DNA of 64,000 bases from an uncultured Chloroflexia bacterium (GCA_963732805.1 CAVTAW010000002.1:538463-602462), one strand, 5' to 3'; counted from the first letter of the stretch, positions 35,473 through 57,217 are shown. The notes: a model not told the origin generated them from the letters alone. Numbers and translations: made by a program.

Positions 35473-35493
35473 ATTATCGATTATAGATTATCG
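35473..35493. promoter_or_regulatory. ATCGAT-core operator, site a. On the minus strand a TATAAT box directly abuts CGATAATC
   Basis: ATTATCGATTATAGATTATCG in the divergent region between DUF1097 and C_GCAxxG_C_C. Confidence 0.6.
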
Positions 35494-35540
35494 TTCAACC
35501 CTCGGTACGGGGTTTTCGACACGGCACGGGAGTCGAGGTC

Positions 35541-36065
35541 ATGCGAGACCGGCAGGCAGGCGACCCGGCAACGGATGAGGCGATCCAGCGGGCCCGCGAC
35601 GCGTTCCTGGACGACCGTCACGTGTACGGATGCGCAGAGACGGCGTTCGTCGTCCTCAAGCGGCGCTTCGGGCTGCCCGATCCGGACGACTCCGCGGCGG
35701 CGATGGCGCTCAACGGCGGTGTCGCCTGGACGGGCGGTCCGTGCGGCGCCGTGACCGGGGCCGCGCTCGCGATCGGGCTGCTCGCCGCGGACCGGATCCT
35801 CGACCATGCGCTCGCCAAGCGTGTCGCACGCGAGCTGGTTGCCGGCCTGATGGACGAGTTCACGGCGCGGTACGGCTCGCTGGACTGTCGCGACCTCGTC
35901 GGCATGGACCTCCGGGGCCCGGGGGCGCATGCCGCGTTCATCGAGCACGGTGGCTGGCGTGTCACGTGCATGGAACAGATCGAGTGGGTCGTCAGTTCCG
36001 CGTCGCGACTGGCCGACCCGGATACCTGGGATGCCACCGTCGACGGGATCGGGCGCGACGACTGA
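35541..36065 (+). CDS. C_GCAxxG_C_C-family putative redox protein
   Basis: ..YGCAETAFVVL.. ..GGPCGAVTGAALAIG.. ..LDCRDLVG.. ..VTCMEQI.. cysteine pattern. Confidence 0.75.
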   Translation: MRDRQAGDPATDEAIQRARDAFLDDRHVYGCAETAFVVLKRRFGLPDPDDSAAAMALNGGVAWTGGPCGAVTGAALAIGLLAADRILDHALAKRVARELVAGLMDEFTARYGSLDCRDLVGMDLRGPGAHAAFIEHGGWRVTCMEQIEWVVSSASRLADPDTWDATVDGIGRDD

Positions 36066-36117
36066 CGGCGCGACCCTGGCGGCGCGACCCCGGCGGCGCG
36101 ACCCCGGCGGCGCGGCG
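36064..36117. repeat. Short GC-rich tandem repeat (14-bp unit GGCGGCGCGACCCC, 2 perfect and 2 partial copies)
   Basis: Read directly from the sequence. Begins within the stop codon (TGA 36063-36065) of the C_GCAxxG_C_C gene. Confidence 0.7.
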
Positions 36118-36176
36118 TCCGCACGGCCGGGGCGGGCGCGGCGCTAGACTTCATGTCGCCCACGCCAGGAGCACAG

Positions 36177-36884
36177 ATGTCTCCGGACAGCACGATCTCG
36201 CGCAGCGTCCTCGCCGAACAGGTGAGGGACCATCTTCTCGAGGACATCCTCGCGGGGCGCTACCCGCCGCACACGCGGATCGTGGAGACGCGAATCGCGC
36301 GTGACCTCGGCACGAGCCAGGCGCCGGTCCGGGAGGCGCTCCGGGGCCTCGAGGCGCTGGGCGTGGTGGAGATCCTCCCGTTCCGCGGCGCACGGGTCCG
36401 CCGTCCGACAGCCGAGGAGCTGCTCGGCGCGTACGAGGTGCGGGCCGAGCTCGAAGCCCTCGGCGCCAGGCTGGGTGTGCCCAGGATGACCGACGCCGAC
36501 CTGGCCGAGCTCGAGGACCTGCTCGCAGCGATGGAGGAGGCCGCCAACTCCGGGGACCGCCACGAGGTCGCGATGCGCGACGCCGCGTTCCACGCGCGCC
36601 TGCTGCGCCTGGCGGGGAACGCCACGCTGGAGCGCGTGTGGGGCGGCCTGGAGCCCTTCTCCCGGACCTACCTCACGCTCGTCGCCCCGGGCGCGGACAT
36701 GCACTGGACGGCGGGCCTGCACCCCCCGATCATCGAGGCGCTCCGGCGCCGTGACGCGGCGGCCGTCGAGGCCGCATTGCGCCACCACTTCGAGCAGGCG
36801 AGCCGGCACCTGATCGAAGGGTGGCAACCCGCCGGTGAGGGCGAGCGACGCGCTGTCGGCGGGCGGGACGCGGCAGCCCCGTAG
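36177..36884 (+). CDS. GntR-family regulator, FadR subfamily (FCD domain), paralog 1
   Basis: ATG at 36177 follows AGGAG. wHTH ..RIVETRIARDLGTSQAPVREALRGLEALGVVE.., then a helical FCD domain. Confidence 0.85.
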   Translation: MSPDSTISRSVLAEQVRDHLLEDILAGRYPPHTRIVETRIARDLGTSQAPVREALRGLEALGVVEILPFRGARVRRPTAEELLGAYEVRAELEALGARLGVPRMTDADLAELEDLLAAMEEAANSGDRHEVAMRDAAFHARLLRLAGNATLERVWGGLEPFSRTYLTLVAPGADMHWTAGLHPPIIEALRRRDAAAVEAALRHHFEQASRHLIEGWQPAGEGERRAVGGRDAAAP

Positions 36885-36897
36885 ACCCGGCGCGCGA

Positions 36898-37842
36898 TCA
36901 GGACGGGGCGAGCGTCGCCCGCACCTGCTCCGCGACCCGTGATGCCGACAGTCCGTAGATGTCCAGCAGCGCGTCGTTGGGGCCCGACTGCGGGTAGACG
37001 TCCCGCAGCCCGATGCGGTGGACCGGGGTCGGCAGGAGCTCGCCCAGCGTCTCCGCAACCAGCCCGCCGAGCCCACCCAGGATCGTGTGCTCCTCGACGG
37101 TGATCACGCGGCCCGTTCGGCCCGCCGCGGCAACGATCGACGCCGAGTCCACCGGCTTGATCGTCGGCAGGTGGACGACGTGGGCATCGATGCCGTCGGC
37201 CGCGAGCAGCTCGGCCGCATCGACCACGCGTGGCGTCTGGGATCCCGTGCTGATCAGGGTCACGTCCGTGCCCTCCCGGATCGTGACGGCACGCCCGAGC
37301 TCGAACTGGTAGCTGGCGTCGAACAGGCGCTGGGTCGCGTCGCGGACAAGCCGCACGTAGACCGGTCCCGGGTAGCCGGCTGCCCAGCGCAGGACCTGGG
37401 CGGCCTCCACGTCATCGGCGGGGGCGACGCTGACCATGCCCGGCATCGCCCGCATGATCGAGAGGTCGTCCACGATGATGTGGCTCATTCCCGTCATGCC
37501 CGTGAACAGGCCGGCGTAGCTGGGCGTGATCTTGACGTTCAGCCCCGTCTGGGCGATCAGCACCCGGATCTGGTCGAGCGGCCGAACGACCGCGAACGAG
37601 ACGAAGGTGCTGATGAACGGCACCAGGCCCATCGTGGCCAGGCCGGCCGCCACCCCGAGCATGTTCTGCTCGGCGATCCCCATCTGCAGGTACCGGTCCG
37701 GGTGGGCCTTCTCGAAGATGTCGCCCTTGGTCGAGCTGCCGACGTCCCCGTCGAGCATCACGATCCGTGGGTCATCGACCGCCAGCGACGCGACGGTCTC
37801 GCCGAAGATCTCGCGCATCGGCCGGCCCATGGGCAGCGTCAT
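36898..37842 (-). CDS. Transketolase, C-terminal (pyrimidine-binding) subunit
   Basis: ORF 36898..38094. ATG at 37842 overlaps the upstream stop. ..YLQMGIAEQNMLGVAAGLA.. Confidence 0.85.
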   Translation of the reverse strand: MTLPMGRPMREIFGETVASLAVDDPRIVMLDGDVGSSTKGDIFEKAHPDRYLQMGIAEQNMLGVAAGLATMGLVPFISTFVSFAVVRPLDQIRVLIAQTGLNVKITPSYAGLFTGMTGMSHIIVDDLSIMRAMPGMVSVAPADDVEAAQVLRWAAGYPGPVYVRLVRDATQRLFDASYQFELGRAVTIREGTDVTLISTGSQTPRVVDAAELLAADGIDAHVVHLPTIKPVDSASIVAAAGRTGRVITVEEHTILGGLGGLVAETLGELLPTPVHRIGLRDVYPQSGPNDALLDIYGLSASRVAEQVRATLAPS

Positions 37843-38741
37843 CGCGCACCTCCGCCGGCCGACGGCGAGGGCTCGCCCAGCTCGGCCATCGCCGTGGCCA
37901 TCTCCTCGGGCGTGAGGATCCGCGTGTGCCAGAAGTAGTGGCCCTCCATGAACGAGACGCCCTTGCCCTTCACGGTGTGGGCGATGATGACGGTCGGGCG
38001 TCCGTCGCCTTGGGTCGCCTGCTCGAGCACATCCACGATGTCGGCCATGTCGTGGCCGTCCGCCTCCAGCACCCGCCAGCCGAACGCCGCCCACTTGCCG
38101 GCGAGCTCACCTGGAACCTGCGGCGGCAGGCGGCCGTCGGGGCCGTCGCCACGCCAGCCGAACTGCTGGAGCTTGTTGTGGTCGACGATCGCCACCAGGT
38201 TGTCCAGCCCGTAGTGACTGGCTACCATCGCGGCCTCCCAGACCTCGCCCTCCTGGCACTCCCCGTCACCAAGCATCACGAACGCGCGCACGTCGCAGCC
38301 GGTCAGCCGGGCTCCCAGCGCCATGCCGGTGGCTGCCGAGATGCCCATGCCCAGCGAGCCTGTTGACATGTCGAGCCCGGGCAGGCGGGTCATGTCGGGA
38401 TGACCCTGGAGGCGCGAGTTGGCCGCGTCGAAGGTCAGCAGCTCCTCCACCGGGAAGTAGCCGCGGAGCGCCATCGTCGCGTACAGGCCGATCGATGCGT
38501 GGCCCTTGGACAGCACGAACCGGTCGCGGTCCGGCCAGCCCGGCTCCTCTGGGCGGATCCGGAGCACGTGGAAGTACAGCGCCGCGAGCAGGTCGGCGGC
38601 CGACAGGGGTCCGCCCAGGTGACCGCCCTTGGCGTGGTCGACGGTCCGGACCACCTCCACCCGGATCCGGCGGGCCATCTCGCGCAGCCGGTCGAGCTCC
38701 GCCTCGTCCACCGAGGCGCTCGAGGCCGCACCCGTGCTCAC
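37839..38741 (-). CDS. Transketolase, N-terminal (TPP-binding) subunit
   Basis: GTG at 38741 overlaps the cupin stop (GTGA). ..GGHLGGPLSAADLL..SKGHAS..GDGECQEGEVWEA.. Confidence 0.85.
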   Translation of the reverse strand: MSTGAASSASVDEAELDRLREMARRIRVEVVRTVDHAKGGHLGGPLSAADLLAALYFHVLRIRPEEPGWPDRDRFVLSKGHASIGLYATMALRGYFPVEELLTFDAANSRLQGHPDMTRLPGLDMSTGSLGMGISAATGMALGARLTGCDVRAFVMLGDGECQEGEVWEAAMVASHYGLDNLVAIVDHNKLQQFGWRGDGPDGRLPPQVPGELAGKWAAFGWRVLEADGHDMADIVDVLEQATQGDGRPTVIIAHTVKGKGVSFMEGHYFWHTRILTPEEMATAMAELGEPSPSAGGGAR

Positions 38742-39106
38742 GATGGCTCCCGGTTCTCGTACGAGCCGGACACGACCGGCGGCGAGAACAGGCACACGAG
38801 CTCGAGGGGCTCCTGGTCGTCCGCCTCGGTCGCGTGGAACGTGCCGGGCGACACGTGGACCACGACGCCGGGTTCGACCTCGGCGATCCCGTCCGGCGTC
38901 ACGATCCGCCCGTGGCCCGCCGTGCAGTAGATGGTCTCCTCCTCGGCAGGGTGGACGTGGCCGGCCGGCCTGGATCCGGGCGGAAACACGGAGACGCCCA
39001 TCGACACCTGTCGGGCGGCGCTGTTGTGCGGCCCGAGATACGAGTACCAGTTGCGACCGGGGAGCGGCACGACCTCCGCCTCGGCTCGGGCGACCCGTTT
39101 GATCAT
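38738..39106 (-). CDS. Cupin-domain protein
   Basis: ..GHVHPAEEETIYCTAGHG.. ..GTFHAT.. (two cupin motifs). Confidence 0.75.
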   Translation of the reverse strand: MIKRVARAEAEVVPLPGRNWYSYLGPHNSAARQVSMGVSVFPPGSRPAGHVHPAEEETIYCTAGHGRIVTPDGIAEVEPGVVVHVSPGTFHATEADDQEPLELVCLFSPPVVSGSYENREPS

Positions 39107-39172
39107 CCCGCCACCTCTCGTCGGCAGTGAGCCACCCTGCGCGCCGGGACGGGCGACGGTGGATGGACAAAC

Positions 39173-39213
39173 AATCGATTATCGAGAATACGGCGGGAGG
39201 ACAGGGCGGTCAA
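39173..39213 (-). promoter_or_regulatory. Promoter plus ATCGAT-core operator, site b (cupin-transketolase operon)
   Basis: Minus strand: TTGACC (39208-39213), 17 nt, TATTCT (39185-39190), directly followed by CGATAATCGATTG. Confidence 0.65.
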
Positions 39214-39276: not shown

Positions 39277-40374
39277 TCAGGCGCGCCGCGCGTCGGGGTC
39301 CGGCAGCACCAGGTCCCGGACCGCGCCCTGGAGATCGTGATAGGACTTGATGAACGCCCGCAGGGTTCGGGCGCTGGCGCCGTAGGACTCGAACTCGTCC
39401 GGTGCCATCCCGTCGGGATCGTAGGCACGCCGGAAGTCTGGGATCCGCTGGTACAGATCGGCGATCAGCGCCGGGTCGGCCGGGACGTCGATCCGCGGGG
39501 TCGGGTCGATCCCGCTGGCGTTGAACCGGACCTGCCAGGGGTAGGGAATGGTCATGCTGACGTCTCCGCCGACAAGCTCCGTCCAATGGAGCCGATGGCG
39601 ATAGGCGGCGGCCAGCAGCCGCGACCGGTAGCCGCGCTCGACGAACAGCCCGTAGGTCCGCTTGAACGCGGCGATGCCGGCCCAGTTGGGGGCATCCGGA
39701 TGGACGGCAAGGTCGTCGCGTTCGATGAGGACCTTCATCCAGTCGTCCAGCCGCCCGATCATGAGCACCACGATCGGGCTCATCGAGTCGACGTCCTCGC
39801 CGGCCGCCGCCCGGAGTGCCAGCCCGCGCTCCACCGCCTCGGCCGCCGCCAGCGCCTGGGGCACCGTGAAGCTCACCGTGGCGGTGATGTTCACGCCGCG
39901 CGCCGTCGCCTCCTCGATCGCCTCCAGGCCGGCCGCGGTCACCGGGAACTTCACCTGGAGATTGGGGGCCAGACCCGCGAACCGGACCGCCTGGTCGACC
40001 ATGCGCACCGGATCACGATGGTTGGCGGGGTTGGTCTGCACGGACAGCCGGCCCGCGCGACCACCCGTGCGCTCGAACACCGGCTCGAGGATGGCGGCGC
40101 CGCGGACGACCATCTCCTCGGCGACGGCCCAGGCGAGCTCGACCTCCGTCCAGGCCGGATGCTCCAGCGCCAGCTCCCGCACGCGCGGCTCCCACCGTGT
40201 CCGTTCCTTGCGCATGACCTCGAGCACGATGCTCGGGTTGGAGGTCGCCCCGGTCGCTCCGCGCTCGACCGCGTAGGTCAGCTCATCGACGGCGCACGAG
40301 TCGTTCCAGTACTGGGTTGGTGTCTCCCTGGTCATCCGCAGCAGGGGGCTGGCAGCTGACGTGGCAACGGTCAT
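39277..40374 (-). CDS. Transaldolase-family protein
   Basis: ..GATGATSNPSI.. ..LQVKFPVTAAGLEAIE.. (Schiff-base Lys). The start is uncertain: ATG 40374 is preferred, and ATG 40503 lies inside operator site c1. Confidence 0.8.
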   Translation of the reverse strand: MTVATSAASPLLRMTRETPTQYWNDSCAVDELTYAVERGATGATSNPSIVLEVMRKERTRWEPRVRELALEHPAWTEVELAWAVAEEMVVRGAAILEPVFERTGGRAGRLSVQTNPANHRDPVRMVDQAVRFAGLAPNLQVKFPVTAAGLEAIEEATARGVNITATVSFTVPQALAAAEAVERGLALRAAAGEDVDSMSPIVVLMIGRLDDWMKVLIERDDLAVHPDAPNWAGIAAFKRTYGLFVERGYRSRLLAAAYRHRLHWTELVGGDVSMTIPYPWQVRFNASGIDPTPRIDVPADPALIADLYQRIPDFRRAYDPDGMAPDEFESYGASARTLRAFIKSYHDLQGAVRDLVLPDPDARRA

Positions 40375-40491
40375 CGCACGGACCTCGGCACTTCGCGGGT
40401 CGTCGGCCTGGTCGCTCCCGTCGTCCGGCTGGCTCCACGGGACCGCGTCGAGCCACCCGGGAGCGCCGGTTCCGCCCGCCTCGTCTACGGT

Positions 40492-40509
40492 ATCATCGAT
40501 CATCGATTG
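40492..40509. promoter_or_regulatory. ATCGAT-core operator, site c1
   Basis: ATCATCGATCATCGATTG. Confidence 0.55.
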
Positions 40510-40534
40510 TGATGCGGAATCGCGTTGTCGGCGC

Positions 40535-40585
40535 TTGACTGGGGCGCCGGAACGCGCCTACAGTTATCGACAATCGATTATCGAT
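40535..40585 (+). promoter_or_regulatory. Promoter plus ATCGAT-core operator, site c2 (long plus-strand operon)
   Basis: TTGACT (40535-40540), 18 nt, TACAGT (40559-40564), directly followed by TATCGACAATCGATTATCGAT. Confidence 0.65.
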
Positions 40586-40734
40586 CCCACCACATGCGCA
40601 ACCGCGACGAAGCCCGGCGACAACCTTCCGTCCCCGACATCGGCGAAGGTCCGGTGCCGGCCGCCGCCGCGCCTGTCGACAGGGCGTGTCCCACTCGGCG
40701 CGTCCGGGCGGAACGCGCGTAGGAGAAGGTGCGA

Positions 40735-41985
40735 ATGGCGACGGTCGTGGTCCTCGGCACGCTCGACACCAAGGGTGCCGAGCACGAGTTCCTCCGCGAC
40801 CGGATCCAGGACCTTGGGTGCGATGTCGTCCTCGTCGACGCGGGCGTCACCGGCTCGACCTCGCCGGCCGACGTGACCGCCGACGAGGTTGCGGCGGCGG
40901 CGGGCGCGGACCGGGCGGCCCTGGTGGCCGCGGGCGACCGCGGTCCGGCGGTGTCGGCGATGACCCGCGGGGCGATCGCGGTGGTTGGCCGCCTGCACGC
41001 GGACGGCCGACTGGACGGGATCCTGGGGCTTGGCGGGTCCGGGGGCTCGTCGTTGATCGCGGCGGCCATGCGGGCGCTCCCGGTCGGGGTGCCCAAGCTG
41101 CTGGTCTCGACCATGGCGTCCGGCGACACTCGCCCGTACGTCGGGACCTCCGACATCGCGATGATGTACTCGGTCGTCGACATCGCCGGGATCAACGGCA
41201 TCTCGGAGAAGATCCTGGCCAACGCAGCCGCGGCCATGGCGGGCATGGCCCGGGCCTCGGCGTCCTTCGTGTCCGGGATCGAGCGCAAGCCGCTGATCGG
41301 CGCCACGATGTTCGGTGTCACCACCCCGTGCGTGACCGCCGCACGCGAGATCCTCGAATCCCGGGGCTACGAGGTGCTCGTGTTCCACGCCACCGGCTCC
41401 GGGGGCCGCTCGATGGAGGCGCTGATCGAGGCGGGCTTCATCACGGGATCGCTGGACATCACCACCACGGAGCTTGCCGACGAGCTGGTCGGAGGCGTCC
41501 TGTCCGCCGGCCCCGATCGGCTGGAGGCGGCCGGTCGTCTCGGCATCCCCCAGGTGGTCTCGCTGGGTGCCCTGGACATGGTCAACTTCGGGCCCCTGGA
41601 CACGGTGCCCGCCGCATTTCGCGAGCGCAACCTGTACCAGCACAACGAGACCGTGACCCTGATGCGCACAACCGAGCCGGAGTGCGCCGAGCTCGGCCGG
41701 ATCATCGCCCGCAAGCTCAACGCCGCGACCGGACCGCTGACCCTGTTCATCCCGGCCGCCGGCGTGTCGATGATCGACGTGCCGGGTGCGCCGTTCCATG
41801 ACCCGGCCGCGGATGCGGCGCTGATCCGCGAGCTCAAGGCCGGGCTCGATGCGCGCGTGGACGTGGTCGAGATGGCCACCGACATCAACGATCCCGCCTT
41901 CTCGCGCGCAATGGCCGAGCGCCTCGACGAGCTGTACCGCCAGTGGACCGCCTCGACGGTGGCCGCGGCAGGAGGACCCGCATGA
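40735..41985 (+). CDS. UPF0261-family protein (homolog of the N-terminal half of plant Tm-1)
   Basis: ATG at 40735 follows [33 protein letters not shown].. Confidence 0.75.
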
Positions 41986-42821
41986 CCGGTCAGGAGGCGC
42001 TGGGGCGCCTGCGCAGGACGCTCGCACAGGGCGGCGTGATCATGGGCGCCGGCGCCGGGACCGGCCTGTCGGCGAAATGCGCCGAGGCCGGCGGAGCGGA
42101 CCTGATCATCATCTACAACTCCGGCCGTTACCGGATGGCCGGCCGGGGCTCGCTGGCGGGCATGATGCCCTACGGGGACGCGAACGCGATCGTCATGGAC
42201 ATGGCCGGCGAGGTGCTCCCGGTGGTCCGGGAGACACCCGTCCTCGCCGGCGTGTGCGGGACCGACCCGTTCCGCCTGATGGCGGTGTTCCTGGAGGAGG
42301 TCAAGCGCGTCGGCTTCTCCGGGGTCCAGAACTTCCCCACCGTCGGGCTGTGCGACGGGAAGTTCCGCCAGAACCTCGAGGAGACCGGCATGGGCTACGG
42401 GCTCGAGGTGGACATGATCCGGACCGCCCACGAGGCGGGCCTGCTCACCACGCCGTACGTGTTCGACGAGGAGCAGGCCCGGGCAATGGCCGAGGCCGGC
42501 GCCGACGTCATCGTCGCGCACATGGGGCTCACGACCAAGGGTGCCATCGGGGCCACCACGGCCCTCACCCTCGAGGCATCGGCCGAGCGCGTCCAGGCCA
42601 TTCGCGACGCCGCCGCCGGCGTCAAGCCCGACATCATCGCCCTGTGCCACGGCGGTCCCATCGCGGAGCCGGACGACGCGCAGTACATCCTGGAGCACAC
42701 CACGGGCGTCGCCGGCTTCTTCGGCGCGTCGAGCATGGAGCGACTCCCGACGGAGGTGGCGATCACCGAGAACATGCAGCGCTTCAAGCGAATCACGCGC
42801 GCAGCGGCCCCCGCGCACTGA
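41982..42821 (+). CDS. PEP-hydrolase-like TIM-barrel protein (homolog of the C-terminal half of Tm-1)
   Basis: ATGA overlap with the previous gene. ..[31 protein letters not shown].. ..VQNFPTVGL.. ..[10 protein letters not shown].. Confidence 0.75.
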
Positions 42822-42881
42822 GCAACGGCACGGATCCAGTCGCCACCGGCGACACGAGCCATCGCACAGGAGGAAGCAACG

Positions 42882-44658
42882 GTGCCCTTGAAGGAAGAAG
42901 TCCTCGGCCAGTTCCTGGGGGACGAGAAGTTCCCGGTCACATGGACGTCGGAGACCGAGAAGCTCCTGTTCTGGGTCTACGACGACCTGCACTGCCCGCA
43001 CCCGCTCAGCCCGATGTACGAGGACATCGGCGGCTGGTGGCTGAGCTGCGACCACATGTTCCGCCGGTTCGGCACGCCGTTCGCGACGGACTGGATCTAC
43101 AAGAACGTCAACGGCTACCTGCTATACGGCCGCGATCCCGGCCGAAGCCGGGCCTCGACGGTCGACACGCAGGAGTACAACTACCGGACCAAGCCGGTGG
43201 TGCCCGAGGATCCGGACTACGCGGCCAAGATCGGCGCCTACCTGGGCGCCGTCCTGCCGACGTACGGCCTCCAGTTCGTGAACTGGTGGCGCGAGCGCCT
43301 CGGTTCCCGAGATGGATCGCAACTTCCAGTATCTGGAGGGGATGCTCGACAAGCAGGACGAGCTCAATCTCATGGAGCTTGCGTGCCTGTTCGAGGACGC
43401 GATCGACATCCACGATCGCCACTGGAAGATCCACTGGATGCTCAACTTCGCCCAGCTGTCCGCGACCCTGAACCTGCGGGCGGTGATGGAGAAGACCCAC
43501 GGCAAGATCGACGAGGTGCTCCTCGGCCGGCTCCAGAACTCGGCCAAGGACCGCAACTGGGACTCGATCGATGCGCTGTGGAAGATGAAGGAGGAGGCCA
43601 AGGCCGACCCGGAGCTGGCCCCCATCTTCAAGGCCGAGACCGCCGGCGAGATCATCGAGGGCCTCAAGGCAAGCGAGCGCGGCCGGCGCTTCATCGACGA
43701 GCGCGTGGTCCCGTACCAGCAGGAGTTCGGCTGGCACGCGGTCTGGAGCCACGAGTTCATCTTCCCCAACGTCGTCGAGCAGATGGAGCCGGTGATCGAG
43801 CTGGTCCGCGGCTACATCGAGACCAACTACGACTACCCCAAGACCATTGCCGCCCTCGCCGCGGACATCGACGCCGCGGCCAAGGAGATCCTCGAGGGCC
43901 TCGAGGGCGAGGCGCTCGAGGAGATGCGGGCCGCCAACGAGATCAACCTCCGGATGGCCCCGCTGACGCCGGACCACCACTTCTACATCGACCAGGGCGC
44001 CAACGCGCACGTGCGCCAGGTGCTGATGGCGATCGGCCGGAAGCTCGTGGCGCAGGGCGTCCTCGACGCCCCCGACGACGTCGTGTACTTCCGCTACAAC
44101 GAGCTGCGCGTGTTCATGGGCGACCCGTCCGCGATGGACGGTCGCGCGGTCGTGGCCAAGGCCAAGGCCGCCCGCGAGAAGGCGTACACGTTCCGGCCCA
44201 AGGAGTGGGTCGGAACGGTGACCGCGACCCAGCTCGCGTTCCCGTACCTGAACCTGTGGGGCTTCCCAGACAAGTTCTATCGCAAGACCGCCACGGTGGC
44301 CGGCCAGATCACGGGCATCGGCGGATCGCCGGGCGTGGTCGAGGGCATCGCCCGTGTCGTGCTCCGGGAGGACCAGTTCGACGACGTTCGGGCGGGCGAC
44401 ATCCTGGTGTGCCAGATGACCAACCCGGCCTGGGTGGTCCTGTTCACCAAGATCGTCGGCCTGGTGACCGACGCGGGCGGCACCGTGTCGCATCCGGCCG
44501 TGCTGTCGCGCGAGTTCGGGATCCCGGCCGTCGTCGGGTCGTCCGTGGGCACCGAGCAGATCAAGAACGGCGACCGGATCCGGATCAACGGCACCACCGG
44601 TCTCGTCGAGATCCTCAGCACCGAGCCCAGCCGGCCGCTCGTCGGCGTCGGCTCCTAG
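42882..44658 (+). pseudogene. PEP-utilising-enzyme family protein (novel N-terminal region plus C-terminal phosphohistidine swivel domain), interrupted by a +1 frameshift
   Basis: GTG at 42882 follows AGGAGGAAG. Frame 0 is protein-like up to ..NWWRERL (43299). Frame +1 continues VPEMDRNFQYLE.. to 44658. The 1777-nt length is 592 codons plus 1 nt. Swivel motif ..TDAGGTVSHPAVLSREFGIPAVVG.. Confidence 0.75.
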
Positions 44659-44668
44659 CCCCCTCCCG

Positions 44669-45433: not shown

Positions 45434-45455
45434 CCCCAATCCGCGAAAGGACCAC

Positions 45456-47224: not shown

Positions 47225-47228
47225 CGTG

Positions 47229-49975: not shown

Positions 49976-50862
49976 CGTCAACGACGGATATCGGTCCCAT
50001 CGCTTCGCTGCCCGCGGACCAGGTCGTCCGGGCGGCCGGCCTCGTTCGCGAAGGCCGGATGATCTCGCTCGCGGCGGTCCGCTTCCCGGGCATGCCGCTG
50101 TTCCCGGGACACCCGCCGTTCCAGGTGCTCAACTACCGGACTCCGCGCGGCATCCGGGTCACGGGCGCCCAGCCGTGGGGACCGGTCAACGATGCTGGTC
50201 TCGGGTACATGGCCGAGTACGTGATGGCGACATCCCACTCCGGCGCGCACATGGACGGGCTGGCTCACATGACCGTGGGCGACGACATGGCGTGGTATGG
50301 CGGCGGGCGGGCCGACGACCACCTCACCGACTTCGGCCCGACGCACCTCGACGCCTCGACCATGCCGCCGTTCTTCACTCGTGGCGTCCTGCTCGACGCG
50401 GCCGGTCACCGGGGCGTGGCGTGCCTGGACAAGGGAGCGCCGATCGACGCCGCGGAGTTGGATGCGATGTGCGCGGCCGAGGGGGTCGAGGTCAGGCCAT
50501 GGGACGTGGTCCTGATCCGCACGGGGTACATGGGGCTGTGGCCCGATGCCGACCGGATGGCGGCGCACAAGACTCCCGGCCCCGACATCTCGGCGGCACG
50601 CTGGCTGCTGGACCGGGGGGTGGTCGCCACGGGGACCGACACCGAGACCTACGAGGTCCAGCCGGCGCCGGACCCCGGGCCCGCGGGCAACCCTCAGCCC
50701 GTGCACACGTTGCTGCTGATCCAGAACGCCATCTACCTGATGGAGAGCCTCGACCTCGAGGAGCTCGCCCGACAGCGGGTGTACGAGTTCCTGTTCGTCG
50801 CGCTGCCGGTCAAGATCCGCGGCGCCACCGGGTCGATGGTCGATCCCGTCGCCGTCATCTAG
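49972..50862 (+). CDS. Cyclase-family protein (kynurenine-formamidase / isatin-hydrolase-like fold)
   Basis: ATGA overlap with the previous gene. ..SHSGAHMDGLAH.. metal motif. Confidence 0.7.
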   Translation: MTSTTDIGPIASLPADQVVRAAGLVREGRMISLAAVRFPGMPLFPGHPPFQVLNYRTPRGIRVTGAQPWGPVNDAGLGYMAEYVMATSHSGAHMDGLAHMTVGDDMAWYGGGRADDHLTDFGPTHLDASTMPPFFTRGVLLDAAGHRGVACLDKGAPIDAAELDAMCAAEGVEVRPWDVVLIRTGYMGLWPDADRMAAHKTPGPDISAARWLLDRGVVATGTDTETYEVQPAPDPGPAGNPQPVHTLLLIQNAIYLMESLDLEELARQRVYEFLFVALPVKIRGATGSMVDPVAVI

Positions 50863-50885
50863 CTGCGTCCCAGGGGAGGATCCCC

Positions 50886-52004
50886 ATGCCGGAGATCATG
50901 TCCGCGCCAGTCATGGAGCCCAGCCGCCGCGAACCGCTCGAGCCGGTGCCCGAGACCATGCAGGCGCTCGTCGTCGTCGAGCCCAACCGGCTCGAGATCC
51001 ACGAGGTGCCGGTCCCGGTGCCCGGCCCCAACGAGGTCCTGGCACGGGTCCGCGCGGTGTCGATCTGCGGCACCGACGCCCACCTCATCCGGGGCGACTA
51101 CCCGGGCTTCTGGCCGCCCTCGTTCCCGTTCATCCCCGGGCACGAGTGGGCGGGCGAGGTCGTCGCCCTGGGCCCGGGCGCCGAGCGCTTCGGGTTCGCG
51201 CCCGGCGACCGGGTGGCGGGCACCAGCCACGACGCCTGCGGCGTGTGCCAGAAGTGCGTCGAGGGCCGCTACAACCTGTGCGAGAACTACGGCAAGCCGG
51301 GACTCCACCGCCAGTACGGCCACAACGTCCAGGGCGCCGACGCCACGTACGTCGTCCACGGCGTCAAGTGCGTGTTCCCGCTGCCCGCGGGCCTGGGCTT
51401 CGACGAGGGCGCCCTGATCGACCCCGCGTCGATCGCGCTCCACGTCGCCAACCGGGGCGCCATCGCCCCCGGCGACACGGTCGCGATCACGGGTGCCGGG
51501 GCGATCGGCCTGCTCGCGGGCGATGCCGCCCGGATCCGCGGTGCGGCCCGGGTGATCGTGGTGGAGCGCAACCCGCTCCGCCTTGCCAAGGCCGCCGAGA
51601 TGGGGTTCGAAGCCGTTGACTCGAGTGACGGCGATCCGGCCGCCGTGGTTCGCGCCCTCACCGGCGGCTTCGGCGCCGACGTCGTGCTCGAGTGCGCGGG
51701 GGTGCCCGCGACCGTGGAGTGGGCGCTCGAGATGCTCCGCCGGGGCGGCCGCTGCGCGGCCGTGGGGATCCCCACCGCCGGGGTCGAGATCGCGATGCAG
51801 CGCCTGGTGCTCGACGAGCTCGAGCTGGTGGGCTCCCGCGCCTCAGCGGGCGAGATGCGCCGGGTCATGCCCCTCGTGGAGCAGGGCCGGATGCGGGTGC
51901 GCGACATCATGACCCACTCGTTCACGCTCGCCGACTACCCCCGGGCGATCGATGCCCTCAACGACCCCGGCAGCGGCGCGATCAAGATCATCATCCGGCC
52001 GTGA
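50886..52004 (+). CDS. Zn-dependent medium-chain alcohol/polyol dehydrogenase, copy A
   Basis: ATG at 50886 follows GGGGAGGA. ..ICGTDAH..GHEWAGEV.. ..CGVCQKCVEGRYNLC.. ..GAGAIGLL..VIVVERN.. Confidence 0.85.
   Translation: MPEIMSAPVMEPSRREPLEPVPETMQALVVVEPNRLEIHEVPVPVPGPNEVLARVRAVSICGTDAHLIRGDYPGFWPPSFPFIPGHEWAGEVVALGPGAERFGFAPGDRVAGTSHDACGVCQKCVEGRYNLCENYGKPGLHRQYGHNVQGADATYVVHGVKCVFPLPAGLGFDEGALIDPASIALHVANRGAIAPGDTVAITGAGAIGLLAGDAARIRGAARVIVVERNPLRLAKAAEMGFEAVDSSDGDPAAVVRALTGGFGADVVLECAGVPATVEWALEMLRRGGRCAAVGIPTAGVEIAMQRLVLDELELVGSRASAGEMRRVMPLVEQGRMRVRDIMTHSFTLADYPRAIDALNDPGSGAIKIIIRP
50940..51907 (+). repeat. Inverted-repeat arm A (matches 54371-55336 on the opposite strand)
   Basis: 50940-51562 and 51648-51907 read identically to the reverse complement of arm B, apart from one extra base in B. 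An 85-bp patch (51563-51647) has diverged. Confidence 0.85.
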
Positions 52005-52080
52005 CCCGGGTTCCCGTCGCGCCGGGGACCCCCTGTCCTGCCCGACGGGAACCGTCCCCACCTCCCGAGGAGCTCCTTCC

Positions 52081-54249
52081 GTGACCTACGTGTTCGATTG
52101 CGACGACCGCCTCGATGGCCTGACCTTCGCCCAGGTCAAGCGACAGCTGGGCGGCAAGGCAGCGAACCTGTCCGTGATGGCCGCCGACCTCGGGCTGCCG
52201 GTCCCGCCCGCGTTCACGATCTCCACCGATGCCTGCCACGCGTACCTGGCCCATGGCTGGCCGTCCGGTCTGGACGAGGAGCTCCGGACCCACATGGCGC
52301 GCATGGAGCAGGTGGCCGGCACCCGGTTCGGCGATCCGTCGGACCCGCTCCTGGTCAGCGTCCGGTCGGGTGCACCCGTCTCGATGCCCGGGATGATGGA
52401 CACGATCCTCAACCTCGGCCTCAACGATGCCACGACCGCGGGCCTGGCGGAGCGCGCCGGCAGCCCGAAGTTCGCCGCCAACTGCCGCACCCGGTTCGAG
52501 GCCATGTTCCGCGACATCGTGGGCACCGACACGGTCCCGCGGGATCCATGGCACCAGCTGCGCGCCGCGATCGAGGCCGTGTTCCGGTCGTGGAACAGCG
52601 ACCGCGCCCGGACCTACCGCCGGCGTGAGGGAATCCCCGATGACCTGGGCACGGCCGTCACCGTCCAGGCCATGGTCTTCGGGAACCGCAGCGTCGACTC
52701 CGGCACCGGCGTGCTGTTCACCCGCAACCCGGCCACGGGCGAGGCTGTGCTCTACGGCGACATGATGTTCAACGCGCAGGGCGAGGACGTGGTCGCCGGG
52801 ACACACCGCACCGAGCCGCTGTCGGTGCTCGATGAGCGATTGCCCGCCGTGGCGTCCGAGCTGCGCGAGTACGCGGCGCGCCTCGAGCGTCACCACGCCG
52901 ACCTGTGCGACATCGAGTTCACCATCGAGCACGGCCGGTTGTGGATGCTCCAATGCCGGGTCGGCAAGCGGAGTCCGCAGGCGGCGCTCCGGATCGCGCT
53001 CGAGATGGCGCAGGATCCGACCTTCCCGCTGTCACGGGCGGATGCCGTTCGCCGCGTGGCCGCGATCCTCGCGGACCCGCCCCTGGCGGCATTCGAGCGC
53101 GGCGATGCGGGCGAGCCGCTGACGACCGGCCTGCCGGCCTCGCCGGGGGTCGCCGCGGGTGAGATTGCGACGTCGCCGCAGGCCGCGATAGCGGCCGCCG
53201 ATGCCGGCCGGACCGTGATCCTGGTGCGTGCCGAGACCTCGCCCGACGACGTCCACGGCATGGCCCGTGCCGCCGGCATCCTCACCGCCACCGGCGGCCT
53301 TGCCAGCCATGCCGCGGTGGTCGCCCGCGGGTGGGGCATCCCCGCGGTCGTGGGCGCGGCCGACGTCGTCGTGCACGATGGCGCGGTGGACATCGCCGGG
53401 CGCAGCCTGGCAGCCGGCGACCTGGTCACGATCGACGGTGCCACCGGCGAGGTGTTCGCGGGCGCCGTCGTCGGTCGAAGCGAGGTGGTGCCCGAGGCAG
53501 CCGTCCTGCTCGGCTGGGCGCGGGAGCTGGGGATCGAGATCGGCGAGGCCGGAACCACCGTCGACCGGGATGCCTCTGACGCCCCTGGTGCCCCTGACGC
53601 TGTCGACGTCTCCGGAGCGGTGCCGTCCACCGACCCGGCCGGCGCGGCCACGCGGGCGCTCGCGGTGAAGGGCTATGCGACACCGGAGGTGCTGGCGCCG
53701 GCGATCCCGGCCCCCGTCGACGACACGAGCGCGATCCTGGACGGCCTGGTTGCCGATGGCACGGCCGAGCTCGCCGCGGGGTCGTACCGCCTGACGGAGC
53801 GGGGCAAGGCGCTGGCGGCGGAGCTGCTCGCGGCGGATGCCGGCGCCTGGGGTGCCGACCGCGCCACGGCGGCGCTCGACGAGTTCCTCGCCCTCGACCA
53901 GCGGATGAAGGCAACGGTGACCGCGTGGCAGATGCGAGAGGTCGACGGGGCGCAGGCGTTCAACGACCACTCGGACACGGCGTACGACGCGGGTGTGCTG
54001 GCCGATCTGGATGCCCTCCACGCGGACGCGAAGGCCTGGCTCGACGCGCTGGTCGGCGGGCTGCCGCGCCTGGCCGTGTACGCCGAGCGGCTCGACCGGG
54101 CGAATGCCGCGGCGCAGGGCGGCGACGGACGGTACGTGGCCTCGCCGCGCGTGGACAGCTACCACAGCACGTGGTTCGAGCTGCACGAGGACCTGATCCG
54201 CCTGGCCGGCCGCAACCGGGCCGACGAGACCGCCGCGGGGCGTGCCTGA
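52081..54249 (+). CDS. Pyruvate-phosphate-dikinase-like protein: ATP-grasp nucleotide domain plus phosphohistidine swivel domain. The PEP/pyruvate TIM barrel is replaced by an unrelated ~230-aa C-terminal region
   Basis: GTG at 52081 follows GAGGAG. ..GGKAANLSVM.. ..LLVSVRSGAPVSMPGMMDTILNLGLND.. ..TATGGLASHAAVVARGWGIPAVVG.. The C-terminus is helical and Ala-rich, with a wHTH-like ..ILDGLVADGTAELAAGSYRLTERGKAL.. Confidence 0.8.
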   Translation: MTYVFDCDDRLDGLTFAQVKRQLGGKAANLSVMAADLGLPVPPAFTISTDACHAYLAHGWPSGLDEELRTHMARMEQVAGTRFGDPSDPLLVSVRSGAPVSMPGMMDTILNLGLNDATTAGLAERAGSPKFAANCRTRFEAMFRDIVGTDTVPRDPWHQLRAAIEAVFRSWNSDRARTYRRREGIPDDLGTAVTVQAMVFGNRSVDSGTGVLFTRNPATGEAVLYGDMMFNAQGEDVVAGTHRTEPLSVLDERLPAVASELREYAARLERHHADLCDIEFTIEHGRLWMLQCRVGKRSPQAALRIALEMAQDPTFPLSRADAVRRVAAILADPPLAAFERGDAGEPLTTGLPASPGVAAGEIATSPQAAIAAADAGRTVILVRAETSPDDVHGMARAAGILTATGGLASHAAVVARGWGIPAVVGAADVVVHDGAVDIAGRSLAAGDLVTIDGATGEVFAGAVVGRSEVVPEAAVLLGWARELGIEIGEAGTTVDRDASDAPGAPDAVDVSGAVPSTDPAGAATRALAVKGYATPEVLAPAIPAPVDDTSAILDGLVADGTAELAAGSYRLTERGKALAAELLAADAGAWGADRATAALDEFLALDQRMKATVTAWQMREVDGAQAFNDHSDTAYDAGVLADLDALHADAKAWLDALVGGLPRLAVYAERLDRANAAAQGGDGRYVASPRVDSYHSTWFELHEDLIRLAGRNRADETAAGRA

Positions 54250-54273: not shown

Positions 54274-55318
54274 TCAGGGCGCGATGACGATCTTGATCGC
54301 GCCGCTGGAACGGTCGTTGAACATGGCCAGGGCATCCGGGTAATCGGACAGCGGGAACCGGTGCGTGATCATGTCGCGCACCCGCATCCGGCCCTGCTCC
54401 ACGAGGGGCATGACCCGGCGCATCTCGCCCGCTGAGGCGCGGGAGCCCACCAGCTCGAGCTCGTCGAGCACCAGGCGCTGCATCGCGATCTCGACCCCGG
54501 CGGTGGGGATCCCCACGGCCGCGCAGCGGCCGCCCCGGCGGAGCATCTCGAGCGCCCACTCCACGGTCGCGGGCACCCCCGCGCACTCGAGCACGACGTC
54601 GGCGCCGAAGCCGCCGGTGAGGGCGCGAACGGCTCCCACGGGGTCGCCAGCCGCGGTGTCGACGACCTCATAGCCGAGCGCCGCAGCGCGGGCCAGCCGC
54701 GACCCCCGGCCGACCACGATCACCCGGGCCGCACCGCGGATCCGGGCGGCATCGCCCGCGAGCAGGCCGATCGCCCCGGCACCCGTGATCGCGACCGTGT
54801 CGCCGGGGGCGATGGCGCCCCGGTTGGCGACGTGGAGCGCGATCGACGCGGGGTCGATCAGGGCGCCCTCGTCGAAGCCCAGGCCCGCGGGCAGCGGGAA
54901 CACGCACTTGACGCCGTGGACGACGTACGTGGCGTCGGCGCCCTGGACGTTGTGGCCGTACTGGCGGTGGAGTCCCGGCTTGCCGTAGTTCTCGCACAGG
55001 TTGTAGCGGCCCTCGACGCACTTCTGGCACACGCCGCAGGCGTCGTGGCTGGTGCCCGCCACCCGGTCGCCGGGCGCGAACCCGAAGCGCTCGGCGCCCG
55101 GGCCCAGGGCGACGACCTCGCCCGCCCACTCGTGGCCCGGGGATGAACGGGAACGAGGGCGGCCAGAAGCCCGGGTAGTCGCCCCGGATGAGGTGGGCGT
55201 CGGTGCCGCAGATCGACACCGCGCGGACCCGTGCCAGGACCTCGTTGGGGCCGGGCACCGGGACCGGCACCTCGTGGATCTCGAGCCGGTTGGGCTCGAC
55301 GACGACGAGCGCCTGCAT
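54274..55318 (-). pseudogene. Zn-dependent alcohol/polyol dehydrogenase, copy B (inverted paralog), with a 1-bp insertion
   Basis: The reverse complement reads ..ATCCCCGGGCCACGAG.. where copy A has ..ATCCCCGGGCACGAG.. The extra G/C lies at 55134-55135. 1045 nt is 348 codons plus 1 nt. Confidence 0.8.
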
Positions 55319-55336
55319 GGTCTCGGGCACCGGCTC
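54371..55336 (-). repeat. Inverted-repeat arm B
   Basis: See arm A. The diverged patch is at 54631-54712. Confidence 0.85.
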
Positions 55337-55402
55337 ACTCCTGCGATCCGATCTGCGGACGAGGCGCGGCGGGCGCGCCGCGGGATCGTGCACGGGCCGC
55401 CG

Positions 55403-56320
55403 TCAGGCTCCGTCCACGGCGCCCGTGAGCTTGTCGTACAGCGACGCGGCGTTGAGGGTCTGGATGTGATCCATCATGTAGCCCTGCCCGATGTCCACCG
55501 GTCCGAACCGGTCGCGGAAGTGCACCCGCTCGATCGTCTCCTCGCGGCTCCAGCCCTTGGCGATCGCGGTCGCGACGGCGGTCTTCCACTCCATCAGGAC
55601 CGATCGCTGGACGTCCAGGTAGGCCTTCGTCACGACGGGCCCGTGCCCGGGCACGATGGTCTCGACGTCGAGCGTCCGGATCCGCTCCAGGGCGTCCAGC
55701 CACTGGGCGACGTTGGACGTCATGAGCCACGTCTGGCAGCCCGAGAAGATCGTGTCGCCGGTGAACACGACGCCCTCCTCGGGCACGTGCACGGCGAGCT
55801 GGCCGGGCGTGTGGCCGGGCGTATGGAGCAGGTTGAAGGTGTGGTCGCCGACATGCAGCGTCAGGTCCCCGGTGAACACGATCGTGCCCTTGTTCGGGTC
55901 GCGGTAGTACTCGTCGCGGTCCGGCCACAGGGCGACGCCAGCAGGATCGTCGAGATCGGTGCCGCGCGGGTTGTCGCCGGGGACGGATTCGTAGGCATAG
56001 GCGAACGGATCGAGGTCGGGGAACACGACCATGAACCGGTCGTACAGCGCCTGGTGGTTGACCACCGCCCCGGCGCCCTTGAAGTAGTAGTTGCCGAAGA
56101 TGTGGTCGACGTGGTGCTCGGTGTTGACGAGGTACCGGATCGGGCCGCGCGACTCCGCCTCGTGGCGCATCGCGACGGCCTTGGACGGCAGCTGCGGCGT
56201 GTCGATCACCACGACACCGTCCGACGTCGTCACGAAGCTCGGGTTGCACCCCCGCAGCTTCGTGGTGGTGAACACGTTCCCGGTGACCCGTTCCATGTCC
56301 AGGGCCGCGTGCGTTTGCAT
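55403..56320 (-). CDS. MBL-fold metallo-hydrolase
   Basis: ATG at 56320 follows GGAGGG. ..NTEHHVDH.. ..HTPGHTPG.. ..VPGHG.. Confidence 0.8.
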   Translation of the reverse strand: MQTHAALDMERVTGNVFTTTKLRGCNPSFVTTSDGVVVIDTPQLPSKAVAMRHEAESRGPIRYLVNTEHHVDHIFGNYYFKGAGAVVNHQALYDRFMVVFPDLDPFAYAYESVPGDNPRGTDLDDPAGVALWPDRDEYYRDPNKGTIVFTGDLTLHVGDHTFNLLHTPGHTPGQLAVHVPEEGVVFTGDTIFSGCQTWLMTSNVAQWLDALERIRTLDVETIVPGHGPVVTKAYLDVQRSVLMEWKTAVATAIAKGWSREETIERVHFRDRFGPVDIGQGYMMDHIQTLNAASLYDKLTGAVDGA

Positions 56321-56372
56321 CTGTTCCCTCCGAGTGCCGAGGCATCGCACGCGCGACCCATCGGCGCGAGGA

Positions 56373-57158
56373 CTACTGGGTCGCCGTGAGACCGCCGTCG
56401 ATGCCCAGGATCTGGCCGGTGATGAACGACGCGGCGTCCGAGCACAGGAACAGGGCCGCACCTGTCAGGTCGTCGGTGGTGCCGACGCGGCCGATCGGGA
56501 TGCGGTTGACGATGCCGGCCTTGAACGCCGGGTCGCCGAGCAGCATCGCGACCTGTGGGGTGTCCACGAAGGTGGGGGAGATCGCGTTGACCGTGATGCC
56601 GTGCTTCGCCCATTCGGTCGCCCATTGGCGGGTGAGCGAGCTGATCGCGCCCTTGGCCGCCACGTAGGCGGAGTAGCCGGCGTTGATGCCCAGCGACGCG
56701 CGGACCGACGAGATGTTGAGCACCCGACCGCCGTTGCCGGCCTGGATCATCGCGCGGACCGCGAACTGGGTCGCCACGAGGGTGCTGCGGACGTTGAGGT
56801 CGTAGATCCAGTCCCAGGCGTCGCGGGGGTACACCTCGGCATCGAACAGCACCTTGCCCGCGCCGCCGCCGACAGCGTTGACGATGATGTCCAGCCGCCC
56901 GTAGGCGTCCAGCGCCTGCCGGACGATCCGCTCCGCGTCGCCCTCGTCGGTGACGTCGGCAACGACGCCCATGCAGATCCCGCCCGCCTCGCACACCCGG
57001 TCCGCGGAGCTGGTGGCCCGGTCCTCGGTGCGGTCCACCACCACGACGCGCGCGCCGGCGCTCGCGAGACCCGCGCCGATCGCGGAGCCGATGGCGCCGC
57101 CCCCGCCGGCGATGATGGCAACCCGCCCATCGAGCCTGAACGTGTCGAGCAGCGGCAC
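56373..57158 (-). CDS. Short-chain dehydrogenase/reductase (gluconate-5-dehydrogenase-like)
   Basis: GTG at 57158 lies 7 nt after GGAGGG. The alternative ATG at 57179 sits inside operator site d. ..AGGGGAIG.. ..YSAYVAAK.. Confidence 0.8.
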   Translation of the reverse strand: MPLLDTFRLDGRVAIIAGGGGAIGSAIGAGLASAGARVVVVDRTEDRATSSADRVCEAGGICMGVVADVTDEGDAERIVRQALDAYGRLDIIVNAVGGGAGKVLFDAEVYPRDAWDWIYDLNVRSTLVATQFAVRAMIQAGNGGRVLNISSVRASLGINAGYSAYVAAKGAISSLTRQWATEWAKHGITVNAISPTFVDTPQVAMLLGDPAFKAGIVNRIPIGRVGTTDDLTGAALFLCSDAASFITGQILGIDGGLTATQ

Positions 57159-57173
57159 TGTGGTCCCTCCGTT

Positions 57174-57217
57174 GATCATCGATTATCGAGAATAGGTCAT
57201 GCGGGGTGCCCGGTCAA
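57174..57217 (-). promoter_or_regulatory. Promoter plus ATCGAT-core operator, site d (SDR-MBL-ADH operon)
   Basis: Minus strand: TTGACC (57212-57217), 17 nt, TATTCT (57189-57194), directly followed by CGATAATCGATGATC. Same hexamers and spacing as site b. Confidence 0.65.

Follow-up and report, generated by a model that had tools for sequence, protein, structure and literature searches.

A 19-bp palindrome built on ATCGAT-N-ATCGAT stands at five intergenic positions in a 64,000-nucleotide stretch of DNA from an uncultured Chloroflexia bacterium (GCA_963732805.1 CAVTAW010000002.1:538463-602462; the whole stretch is called the window below). Comparison with related genomes indicates that this palindrome is most likely the operator of two paralogous GntR-family regulators encoded in the same 22-kb gene cluster, GntR1 and GntR2, and that it probably marks out a repressor regulon under its own control, which would serve an uncharacterised catabolic pathway. 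An earlier note on this DNA had proposed that an operator centred on ATCGAT ties several dispersed operons into one regulon and had named the two paralogs as candidate binders. Both proposals gain support here: the first from a conserved cluster in which the motif precedes the same operons in dozens of genomes, the second from the co-occurrence of motif and regulator genes and from the way in which the motif appears to follow distant relatives of these regulators.

Recurrence and anatomy of the palindrome

The recurring element is real and far beyond chance. All five site strings quoted in the earlier note are present where it placed them, and the 17-mer ATCGATTATCGAGAATA is the same at 39174-39190 and 57178-57194. 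The exhaustive pattern search that the note had suggested, with ATCGATNATCGA and at most one mismatch, returned 18 matches, against 1.00 expected (standard deviation 1.24, maximum 6, from 100 dinucleotide shuffles). The heptamer TTATCGA has five copies in the 64 kb, all of them at the five sites, and every one of the seven copies of ATCGATT lies within the five regions. All five sites are recovered by a 21-bp weight matrix whose training set came entirely from other genomes (scores in Table 1). In the rest of the 64 kb the next-best position falls below 17 bits, and 19 bits was reached in none of 30 block shuffles.

The window is 71% GC and, by a gene call based on third-codon-position GC (GC3), about 86% coding, and despite this every high-scoring site is intergenic. 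Near-matches within genes (at 20173, 41766, 50833, and 52829) score at most 12 bits, or below 10. Such matches, for example TCGATGGTCGA in the cyclase gene, were ruled out as operators: they score low, their flanks are GC-rich, and they correspond to conserved runs of codons. The string GTCGATGGTCGATCC, which resembles the core of the dyad and recurs in the cyclase genes of many species (at 17502 in the related locus L001 and 17460 in L006), is likewise a conserved coding string reflecting coding constraint and no operator, given its low score and GC-rich flanks.

Alignment of 136 perfect TCGAT-N-ATCGA cores gave the consensus AT[A/C]ATCGAT-N-ATCGAT[G/T]AT, a 19-bp palindrome with a free centre base and flanks that are symmetric to +/-9. 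The dyad character that the earlier note had assigned to the core is thus borne out, its approximate consensus ACAATCGATTGT gives way to the longer one with a free centre, and site 1 is imperfect. The 7-bp phase that the note had listed in addition is present as a recurrence of heptads and is the same thing as the dyad, not a separate feature, because ATCGAT is self-complementary; for the same reason, direct and inverted readings of the heptads are indistinguishable. Most sites hold two units, and the three-heptad arrays at sites 1 and 4 are two dyads overlapping at a 7-bp offset. These individual forms are themselves conserved: the TATAGA imperfection of site 1 is kept in four related genomes (L002, L003, L004, and L008), the triple-heptad form of site 4 is kept ahead of the main operon in many loci, and the arrangement of site 5 recurs before the short-chain dehydrogenase/reductase (SDR) gene in L011, L062, L065, L072, and L078.

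Relatives of the cluster and of its regulators

Eighty related loci (L001-L080) were retrieved from species-representative genomes with the 448-aa phosphoenolpyruvate (PEP)-utilizer protein encoded at 43312-44658 of the window. They come mostly from Limnocylindria-type Chloroflexota metagenome-assembled genomes (MAGs), with some labelled Actinomycetota, Dormibacterota, or otherwise, and their PEP-utilizer proteins are 71-94% identical. The entire gene set is syntenic across the 80 loci, and the dyad is present in most of them at matching places, namely in the divergent region between the transaldolase gene and the main operon and before the cupin-transketolase, SDR-metallo-beta-lactamase (MBL), C_GCAxxG_C_C, and GntR1 genes. 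Some species have a further dyad between an ABC-permease operon and an EamA transporter gene, which fits a catabolic regulon. Phylogenetic footprinting, another check proposed in the earlier note, singled out the same element. Two intergenic alignments, one of the cupin promoter from the 13 species in which the cupin gene has its own promoter and one of the transaldolase-UPF0261 region from 8 species, contain no conserved blocks other than the -35 hexamer, the -10 hexamer, and the dyad. The cupin alignment shares TTGAC-N17-TAnnnT followed by CGATAATCGATT, and loci in which the cupin gene is fused behind transaldolase have neither promoter nor dyad.

The presence of the dyad tracks that of the regulator gene. 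Among loci with at least 5 kb upstream and at least 1.5 kb downstream, 45 have both a GntR gene and the motif and six lack both, with no discordant case (Fisher 5.6e-8). The six GntR-less loci are L030, L035, L039, and L045 from Actinomycetota, and L063 and L080, annotated as Chloroflexia/Limnocylindria. The four Actinomycetota loci and a fifth, L050, keep the enzymes without GntR gene or dyad and have other conserved intergenic sequence instead, such as the blocks GCTATCTGACGGGGCA, AGGGACC, and GGTCnTTCGGCCCT between the transaldolase and DUF1097 genes. A different control system seems to operate there. A substitute regulator was sought within the 21 kb of these motif-less Actinomycetota loci and none was found; the only repressor-like open reading frame (ORF), at a locus edge, is an unrelated BlaI-type gene and was rejected. 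As a separate observation on these loci, L030 carries 2-oxoacid dehydrogenase E2 and E3 genes after its zinc-dependent alcohol dehydrogenase (Zn-ADH) gene, and L035 and L045 have equivalent ORFs of about 444-460 aa.

Both paralogs carry an N-terminal GntR winged helix-turn-helix (wHTH) domain (PF00392; E = 4e-14 for GntR1 and 6.1e-14 for GntR2, both above the gathering score) and a C-terminal, all-helical FCD effector/oligomerisation domain (PF07729; E = 1.5e-26 and 2e-27), and their nearest solved structures are FCD regulators. Overall identity between them is 61%, rising to 77% in the wHTH and falling to 52% in the FCD domain; 18 loci encode both. Their recognition helices, described as near-identical in the earlier note, both read GTSQAPVREAL. 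All 83 GntR copies in the loci have the helix G[T/V/I]SQ[A/G]PVREAL (SQAP in 79, SQGP in 4). The Gln of this helix aligns with what we take to be Arg-45 of FadR. At this position the two paralogs and all 83 related copies have Gln, so that the conserved Arg is missing throughout, whereas five of five aligned FCD homologues from the PDB have Arg there. Arg-45 of FadR and Arg-63 of AraR make a conserved base-specific contact to G (PMC4494728, Table 1). A search of 1.84 billion cluster representatives found an S-Q-x-P helix in about 125 of the best 150 representatives of 50%-identity clusters, reaching down to about 35-40% identity, which identifies a broad clade and no peculiarity of this cluster. 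GntR1 and GntR2 are ordinary members of the GntR/FCD subfamily and come from a widespread and so far undescribed branch.

The weight matrix was then applied to nine loci (L081-L089) around distant SQxP regulators, 38-46% identical where measured. In all nine, sites of 24-33 bits lie beside the regulator gene or at the promoter of its operon; block shuffles of eight of these loci gave 0-0.05 sites of at least 20 bits per locus. In three Alphaproteobacteria (Marivita, Nitratireductor, and a Roseibium-like genome; L081-L083), where the regulator gene is divergent from a TctABC/DctP-ADH-DHDPS operon, there are 3, 1, and 6 sites of at least 20 bits, against 0-0.01 in shuffles. Thermogemmatispora carboxidivorans (L084) has TTGACG-N17-TATACT-AATCAATAATCGATTGT just 5' of the regulator gene in an unrelated context, and an Anaerolineales MAG (L088) has sites of 31.0 and 29.0 bits at an operon for malic enzyme and a 2-oxoacid dehydrogenase. 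A Bacillota genome (L086) has a 27.8-bit site among unrelated neighbours, and the related dikinase/molybdenum (Mo)-hydroxylase clusters of Peribacillus (L085) and a Clostridia MAG (L087) have sites of 25-33 bits. In Thermomicrobium roseum DSM 5159 (L089; megaplasmid NC_011961.1, 45303-74619), TTGACA-N17-TATGAT-AATCGATAATCG stands at the start of a single operon for the same module, which encodes an ABC transporter, a Tm-1-like/UPF0261 protein, a PEP hydrolase family protein, the GntR regulator TRD_RS09625 (helix GVSQTPVREAL), a cyclase, a PPDK_N-type protein, a hypothetical protein, an FAD subunit, an FAA hydrolase, an ABM protein, a PEP-utilizing enzyme, and XDH molybdenum cofactor (MoCo) and 2Fe-2S subunits. 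Across all the loci compared, the motif is associated exclusively with this one regulator clade. In five of the distant loci (L081-L083, L084, and L088) the regulator is the sole gene shared with the window, and these five are the strongest comparative evidence here for the predicted pairing of regulator and operator.

Proposed mode of action and competing explanations

In the FadR subfamily, operators are palindromic and A/T-rich, the inner dinucleotides are separated by 3 nt, and the half-site centres lie 7 bp apart; operators of the GntR family commonly have additional half-site boxes at 7-12 nt from the centre (PMC4494728). The present element is a 19-bp A/T-rich palindrome in DNA of about 71% GC, and its inner dinucleotides, in GA-TNA-TC, are likewise 3 nt apart, within the 2-3 nt of the subfamily, with half-site centres at 7 bp. 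It departs from the TKGT/ACMA (GT...AC) boxes of the subfamily in reading TCGA/TCGA, sharing T at -5 and G at -3 and carrying C at -4 and A at -2. The earlier note had held that the motif does not resemble the usual GT-N-AC half-sites; that is true of the dinucleotide, which is GA/TC here, while the geometry is the usual FadR-subfamily one. The best reading is that of a probable FadR-type variant, with TCGA-N3-TCGA in place of TKGT-N3-ACMA, non-canonical in sequence and of a known type as a system.

FadR, PdhR, LldR, and DgoR (PMC4494728) offer the closest parallel, combining a wHTH-FCD regulator with an A/T-rich palindrome and a 3-nt inner spacing. Further features in common with FadR-type systems are placement in divergent intergenic regions, some double sites or extra half-site boxes, and a regulator gene within the regulated catabolic cluster. 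The differences lie in the half-site, TCGA(T) instead of TKGT, and in the Gln that replaces the Arg of FadR and AraR. Exceptions to TKGT/ACMA are known within the FadR subfamily, BioR with TTATMKATAA and NanR with repeated TGGTATAW units (PMC4494728). Sites 1 and 4 are, like the NanR operator, arrays of three short units, and yet sequence, spacing, and regulated functions all differ from BioR and NanR; the resemblance is one of kind only.

Three sigma-70-like promoters are predicted in the relevant regions as consensus matches to the hexamers (Table 1). Each overlaps or abuts a site, and site 4 begins at the final base of the -10 hexamer. Among 150 intergenic sites of at least 22 bits from the 80 loci and the window, 69 have the dyad centre 5-16 bp past the last base of TTGACN-N16-18-TAnnnT. 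Relative to the predicted promoters, this is the position expected of a repressor, and at all three predicted promoters of the window the dyad lies over the -10 element or the presumed start of transcription.

A plausible mechanism follows the FadR pattern. A regulator dimer would set one winged-helix domain on each ATCGAT half-site, with centres 7 bp apart as in FadR-type operators. Judged against predicted promoters, the sites overlap the -10 element or cover the transcription start of six units, so that bound regulator would block RNA polymerase; the substrate or an intermediate of the pathway may then bind the FCD domain and free the regulator from its operator. Both regulator genes sit in units preceded by the operator, and the system would therefore be autoregulated. 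The paralogs probably bring two signals to the same operators: conservation that is higher in the wHTH than in the FCD domain, together with their co-occurrence, makes two sensors on one operator set a reasonable guess.

Several points weigh against this interpretation. Binding, repression, and co-expression are deduced from sequence comparison. The matrix and the 80 loci were chosen via the same cluster, which leaves independence to the nine distant loci; the co-occurrence table is not phylogenetically independent, its six negatives coming from perhaps three lineages; and the negative control, a single canonical S-R type GntR in the DNA of all loci, is too small. The consensus scan of the window gave no convincing -35/-10 pair at sites 1 and 3. 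Because overlapping dyads 7 bp apart have a half-site in common, the standard geometry would not let two dimers occupy both at once, which leaves the stoichiometry at sites 1 and 4 without an explanation. Nor does the evidence distinguish the two paralogs; binding could be due to just one of them, GntR1 or GntR2. Finally, the operator retains the G of the canonical TKGT box although the Arg that reads G is replaced; a simple swap of an Arg-G for a Gln-A contact does not account for the change in specificity, because that G is still there.

Some of these points feed an alternative in which the GntR proteins bind the dyad as activators or dual regulators, or as a higher oligomer on tandem 7-bp repeats, (ATCGAnn)2-3, in the manner of NanR. 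It draws on the equivalence of direct and inverted readings of the self-complementary ATCGAT, on the triple-heptad arrays kept at the main operon and site 1, on the missing overlapping promoter at sites 1 and 3, and on the existence of direct-repeat operators in the FadR subfamily, such as that of NanR (PMC4494728). We consider it unlikely, in view of the free centre base and symmetric flanks, the single dyads at most sites, and an operator that, wherever a promoter is predicted, spans -10 to +15, the classic position of a repressor. Less likely still is a dyad bound by some regulator whose gene lies beyond the cluster, such as a global or nucleoid-associated factor, with the GntR paralogs recognising something else. 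Such a regulator would fit a motif that breaks the GT...AC rule of GntR-family operators (PMC4494728), and the loci span only about 21 kb, leaving distal genes out of view. The perfect co-occurrence of GntR and motif argues the other way, as does the fact that the motif accompanies distant SQxP regulators into five phyla and into unrelated surroundings with no shared gene but the regulator. Moreover, no further DNA-binding protein was found among the cluster genes with Pfam and NCBIfam, and the intergenic alignments contain no other conserved block.

That the dyad is no protein operator at all, and instead a promoter feature, a small repeat element, an RNA structure, or a restriction or methylation target (ATCGAT is the ClaI site), is scarcely credible: the sites are indeed AT-rich and at promoters, but distinct -35 and -10 hexamers stand beside the dyad, a palindrome with a free centre is no sigma-factor element, ATCGAT away from the sites is near its expected frequency in the window (5 observed, about 3.6 expected), and none of these elements would be expected to track one regulator clade across phyla. 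An RNA element in particular was ruled out, no Rfam family matching anywhere in the window; the dyad, which would make a 6-bp stem with a 1-nt loop, cannot form a hairpin. A repressor operator read by GntR1, GntR2, or both thus remains the favoured interpretation.

Gene content, known parallels, and significance

The features of the cluster are collected in Table 1, with gene identities from Pfam and NCBIfam. The units that flank the sites are those the earlier note had named, with the qualification that the match to DUF1097 is below the Pfam cut-off (21.7 versus 24.6 bits). In many loci the DUF1097-like gene is the first after the operator, ahead of the PEP-utilizer gene, and the motif also precedes the C_GCAxxG_C_C homologue in L019, L052, and L067.

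Table 1. Operator sites, predicted promoters, and genes of the cluster (window coordinates; scores from the 21-bp weight matrix)
Feature	Coordinates	Strand	Remarks
Operator site 1, GATTATCGATTATAGATTATCG	35472..35493	.	28.5 bits; imperfect dyad TCGAT-T-ATAGA plus third heptad; between DUF1097-like gene (-) and C_GCAxxG_C_C/GntR1 operon (+)
Operator site 2, AACAATCGATTATCGAGAATA	39170..39190	.	31.6 bits; upstream of cupin-transketolase operon
Operator site 3, TATCATCGATCATCGATTGTG	40491..40511	.	33.2 bits; perfect 13-bp palindrome, transaldolase side of divergent region; one of just two blocks conserved in the transaldolase-UPF0261 alignment
Operator site 4, TTATCGACAATCGATTATCGAT	40562..40589	.	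22.9 and 28.3 bits; two overlapping dyads, 7 bp offset
Operator site 5, GATCATCGATTATCGAGAATA plus weak flanking dyad	57167..57194	.	32.5 and 16.8 bits; upstream of SDR-MBL-ADH operon
Predicted promoter, cupin-transketolase operon	39185..39213	-	TTGACC-N17-TATTCT; -10 overlaps operator arm; conserved across loci
Predicted promoter, long (main) operon	40535..40564	+	TTGACT-N18-TACAGT; -35 and -10 kept in 8 species
Predicted promoter, SDR operon	57189..57217	-	TTGACC-N17-TATTCT
DUF1097-like integral membrane protein	34754..35350	-	weak Pfam match; putative transporter, putative regulon member
C_GCAxxG_C_C protein	35541..36065	+	Pfam; first gene of the site-1 plus-strand unit with GntR1
GntR1 (GntR wHTH + FCD)	36177..36884	+	helix GTSQAPVREAL; downstream of C_GCAxxG_C_C gene
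Cupin / transketolase N-part / transketolase C-part operon	36898..39106	-	Pfam; gene order conserved
Transaldolase-family gene	39277..40374	-	Pfam; start at 40374 inferred from conserved ATG and Shine-Dalgarno sequence in alignment
Main operon	40735..54249	+	Pfam, NCBIfam, synteny; order: UPF0261 kinase-like, PEP-hydrolase-like, PEP-utilizer/Rph-like, GntR2, unknown protein (~295 aa), Mo-hydroxylase FAD, 2Fe-2S, and MoCo subunits, cyclase, Zn-ADH, PPDK-like
GntR2 (GntR wHTH + FCD)	44669..45433	+	helix GTSQAPVREAL; inside main operon, same position in most loci
SDR / metallo-beta-lactamase-fold / Zn-ADH operon	54274..57158	-	Pfam; SDR start GTG at 57158 after GGAGG

Two apparent gaps in the main operon (490 and 288 bp) proved, on comparison with intact homologues, to be frameshift artefacts and not intergenic DNA. 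The true extent of the PEP-utilizer/Rph-like gene is 42882-44658, with three frame changes; the gene for the unknown protein, sized by comparison with L030, starts by 45475 at the latest and ends at 46345, with one; and the gene for the Mo-hydroxylase FAD subunit covers 46359-47224, with two. The frame changes in these three genes are due to indel errors from long-read assembly or else to pseudogenisation at an early stage. Alongside the 71-94% identity of the PEP-utilizer, the unknown protein next to it reaches 95% across loci. Conservation of this degree is unusually strong for a catabolic enzyme and suggests strong constraint, recent horizontal spread, or both.

Three further features of the window lie around the cluster. 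A homocysteine S-methyltransferase gene (57306-58235, +) faces away from the SDR operon across the intergenic region that contains site 5. A 5-oxoprolinase-like set of LamB/YcsF and carboxyltransferase C/D-domain genes (30557-33024, -), immediately upstream of the cluster, has no dyad and appears to lie outside the regulon. At positions 1-5630 about 2.68 kb of sequence is duplicated in tandem, in parts with 100% identity (for example 971-1270 and 3649-3948, or 2045-2344 and 4723-5022), with internal 303-nt repeats and two resulting gene copies for a repeat-domain protein of about 630 aa; the duplication may be real or an assembly artefact.

The gene content suggests a catabolic system, since the regulon would comprise transporters or a membrane protein, a UPF0261 kinase, a two-part dikinase, a Mo hydroxylase, a cyclase, dehydrogenases, transketolase, and transaldolase. 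In the 3hpd cluster of Ensifer adhaerens HP1, which serves 3-hydroxypyridine catabolism, the Mo hydroxylase requires a PEP-utilizing mobile-domain protein and a PPDK-like protein, and the cluster includes an inducible ABC transporter (bioRxiv 10.1101/2020.01.08.898148). Shared with it are, by Pfam, the Mo-hydroxylase subunits, the PEP-utilizer, and the PPDK-like protein, together with a GntR-family regulator in the cluster. Among the ORFs of the window cluster, however, Pfam found no SRPBCC/CoxG subunit and no genes of the maleamate pathway (hpdBCDE); a COXG gene was found solely in the Peribacillus version of the cluster. The window has a cyclase, Zn-ADHs, an SDR, an MBL-fold protein, a cupin, a split transketolase, and a transaldolase instead. 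Lacking the SRPBCC subunit and the maleamate pathway, the cluster probably acts on a substrate other than 3-hydroxypyridine.

A second parallel comes from kinases that phosphorylate phenolic hydroxyls as the first catabolic step, namely the UPF0261 protein MarK, the two-subunit dikinases AcvAB/HpeHI and CreHI, and phenylphosphate synthase (PMC12624787; bioRxiv 10.1101/2020.01.08.898148). The regulon likewise encodes a UPF0261 protein and a pair of PEP-utilizer and PPDK_N proteins, whereas the biotin carboxylase and phosphatase partners of the acetovanillone pathway are absent. A link to the acetovanillone clusters was considered and dropped, because the regulators in the acv-like cluster of a Rhizobium plasmid are different ones and nothing connects that cluster with the motif.

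Searches of the full-text literature, whose coverage is incomplete, for the operator strings and for ATCGAT with GntR and operator returned primers and CpG oligonucleotides only. The accessible part of the supplement of the 2015 GntR survey by Suvorova et al. (PMC4494728) contains no ATCGAT dyad and no SQAPVREAL regulator, and the searchable, incomplete literature yielded no description of the motif or the clade.

A broader claim can be put forward tentatively, as one joint proposition that we do not yet favour outright: the dyad may be the clade-wide operator of a large, multi-phylum, and as yet undescribed FCD-type GntR branch in which the main base-reading Arg of the family has become Gln and TKGT has become TCGAT, and in the window it may delimit a complete uncharacterised catabolic pathway, possibly leading from a kinase/dikinase-assisted Mo hydroxylase to a cyclase, dehydrogenases, transketolase, and transaldolase, with very high conservation in abundant soil Chloroflexota.

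For a large unannotated set of GntR/FCD proteins, the pairing amounts to a testable specificity rule, in which the helix S-Q-x-P-V-R-E-A-L goes with the operator ATCGAT-N-ATCGAT, and this rule would make it possible to predict regulons straight from genome and MAG sequences in five or more phyla. The exchange of Arg for Gln at the FadR Arg-45 position would represent a natural re-specification within the GntR fold. Thermomicrobium roseum DSM 5159 is a cultured representative and offers a convenient experimental system, and the shared regulation would mark the full gene set of a conserved, uncharacterised catabolic system.

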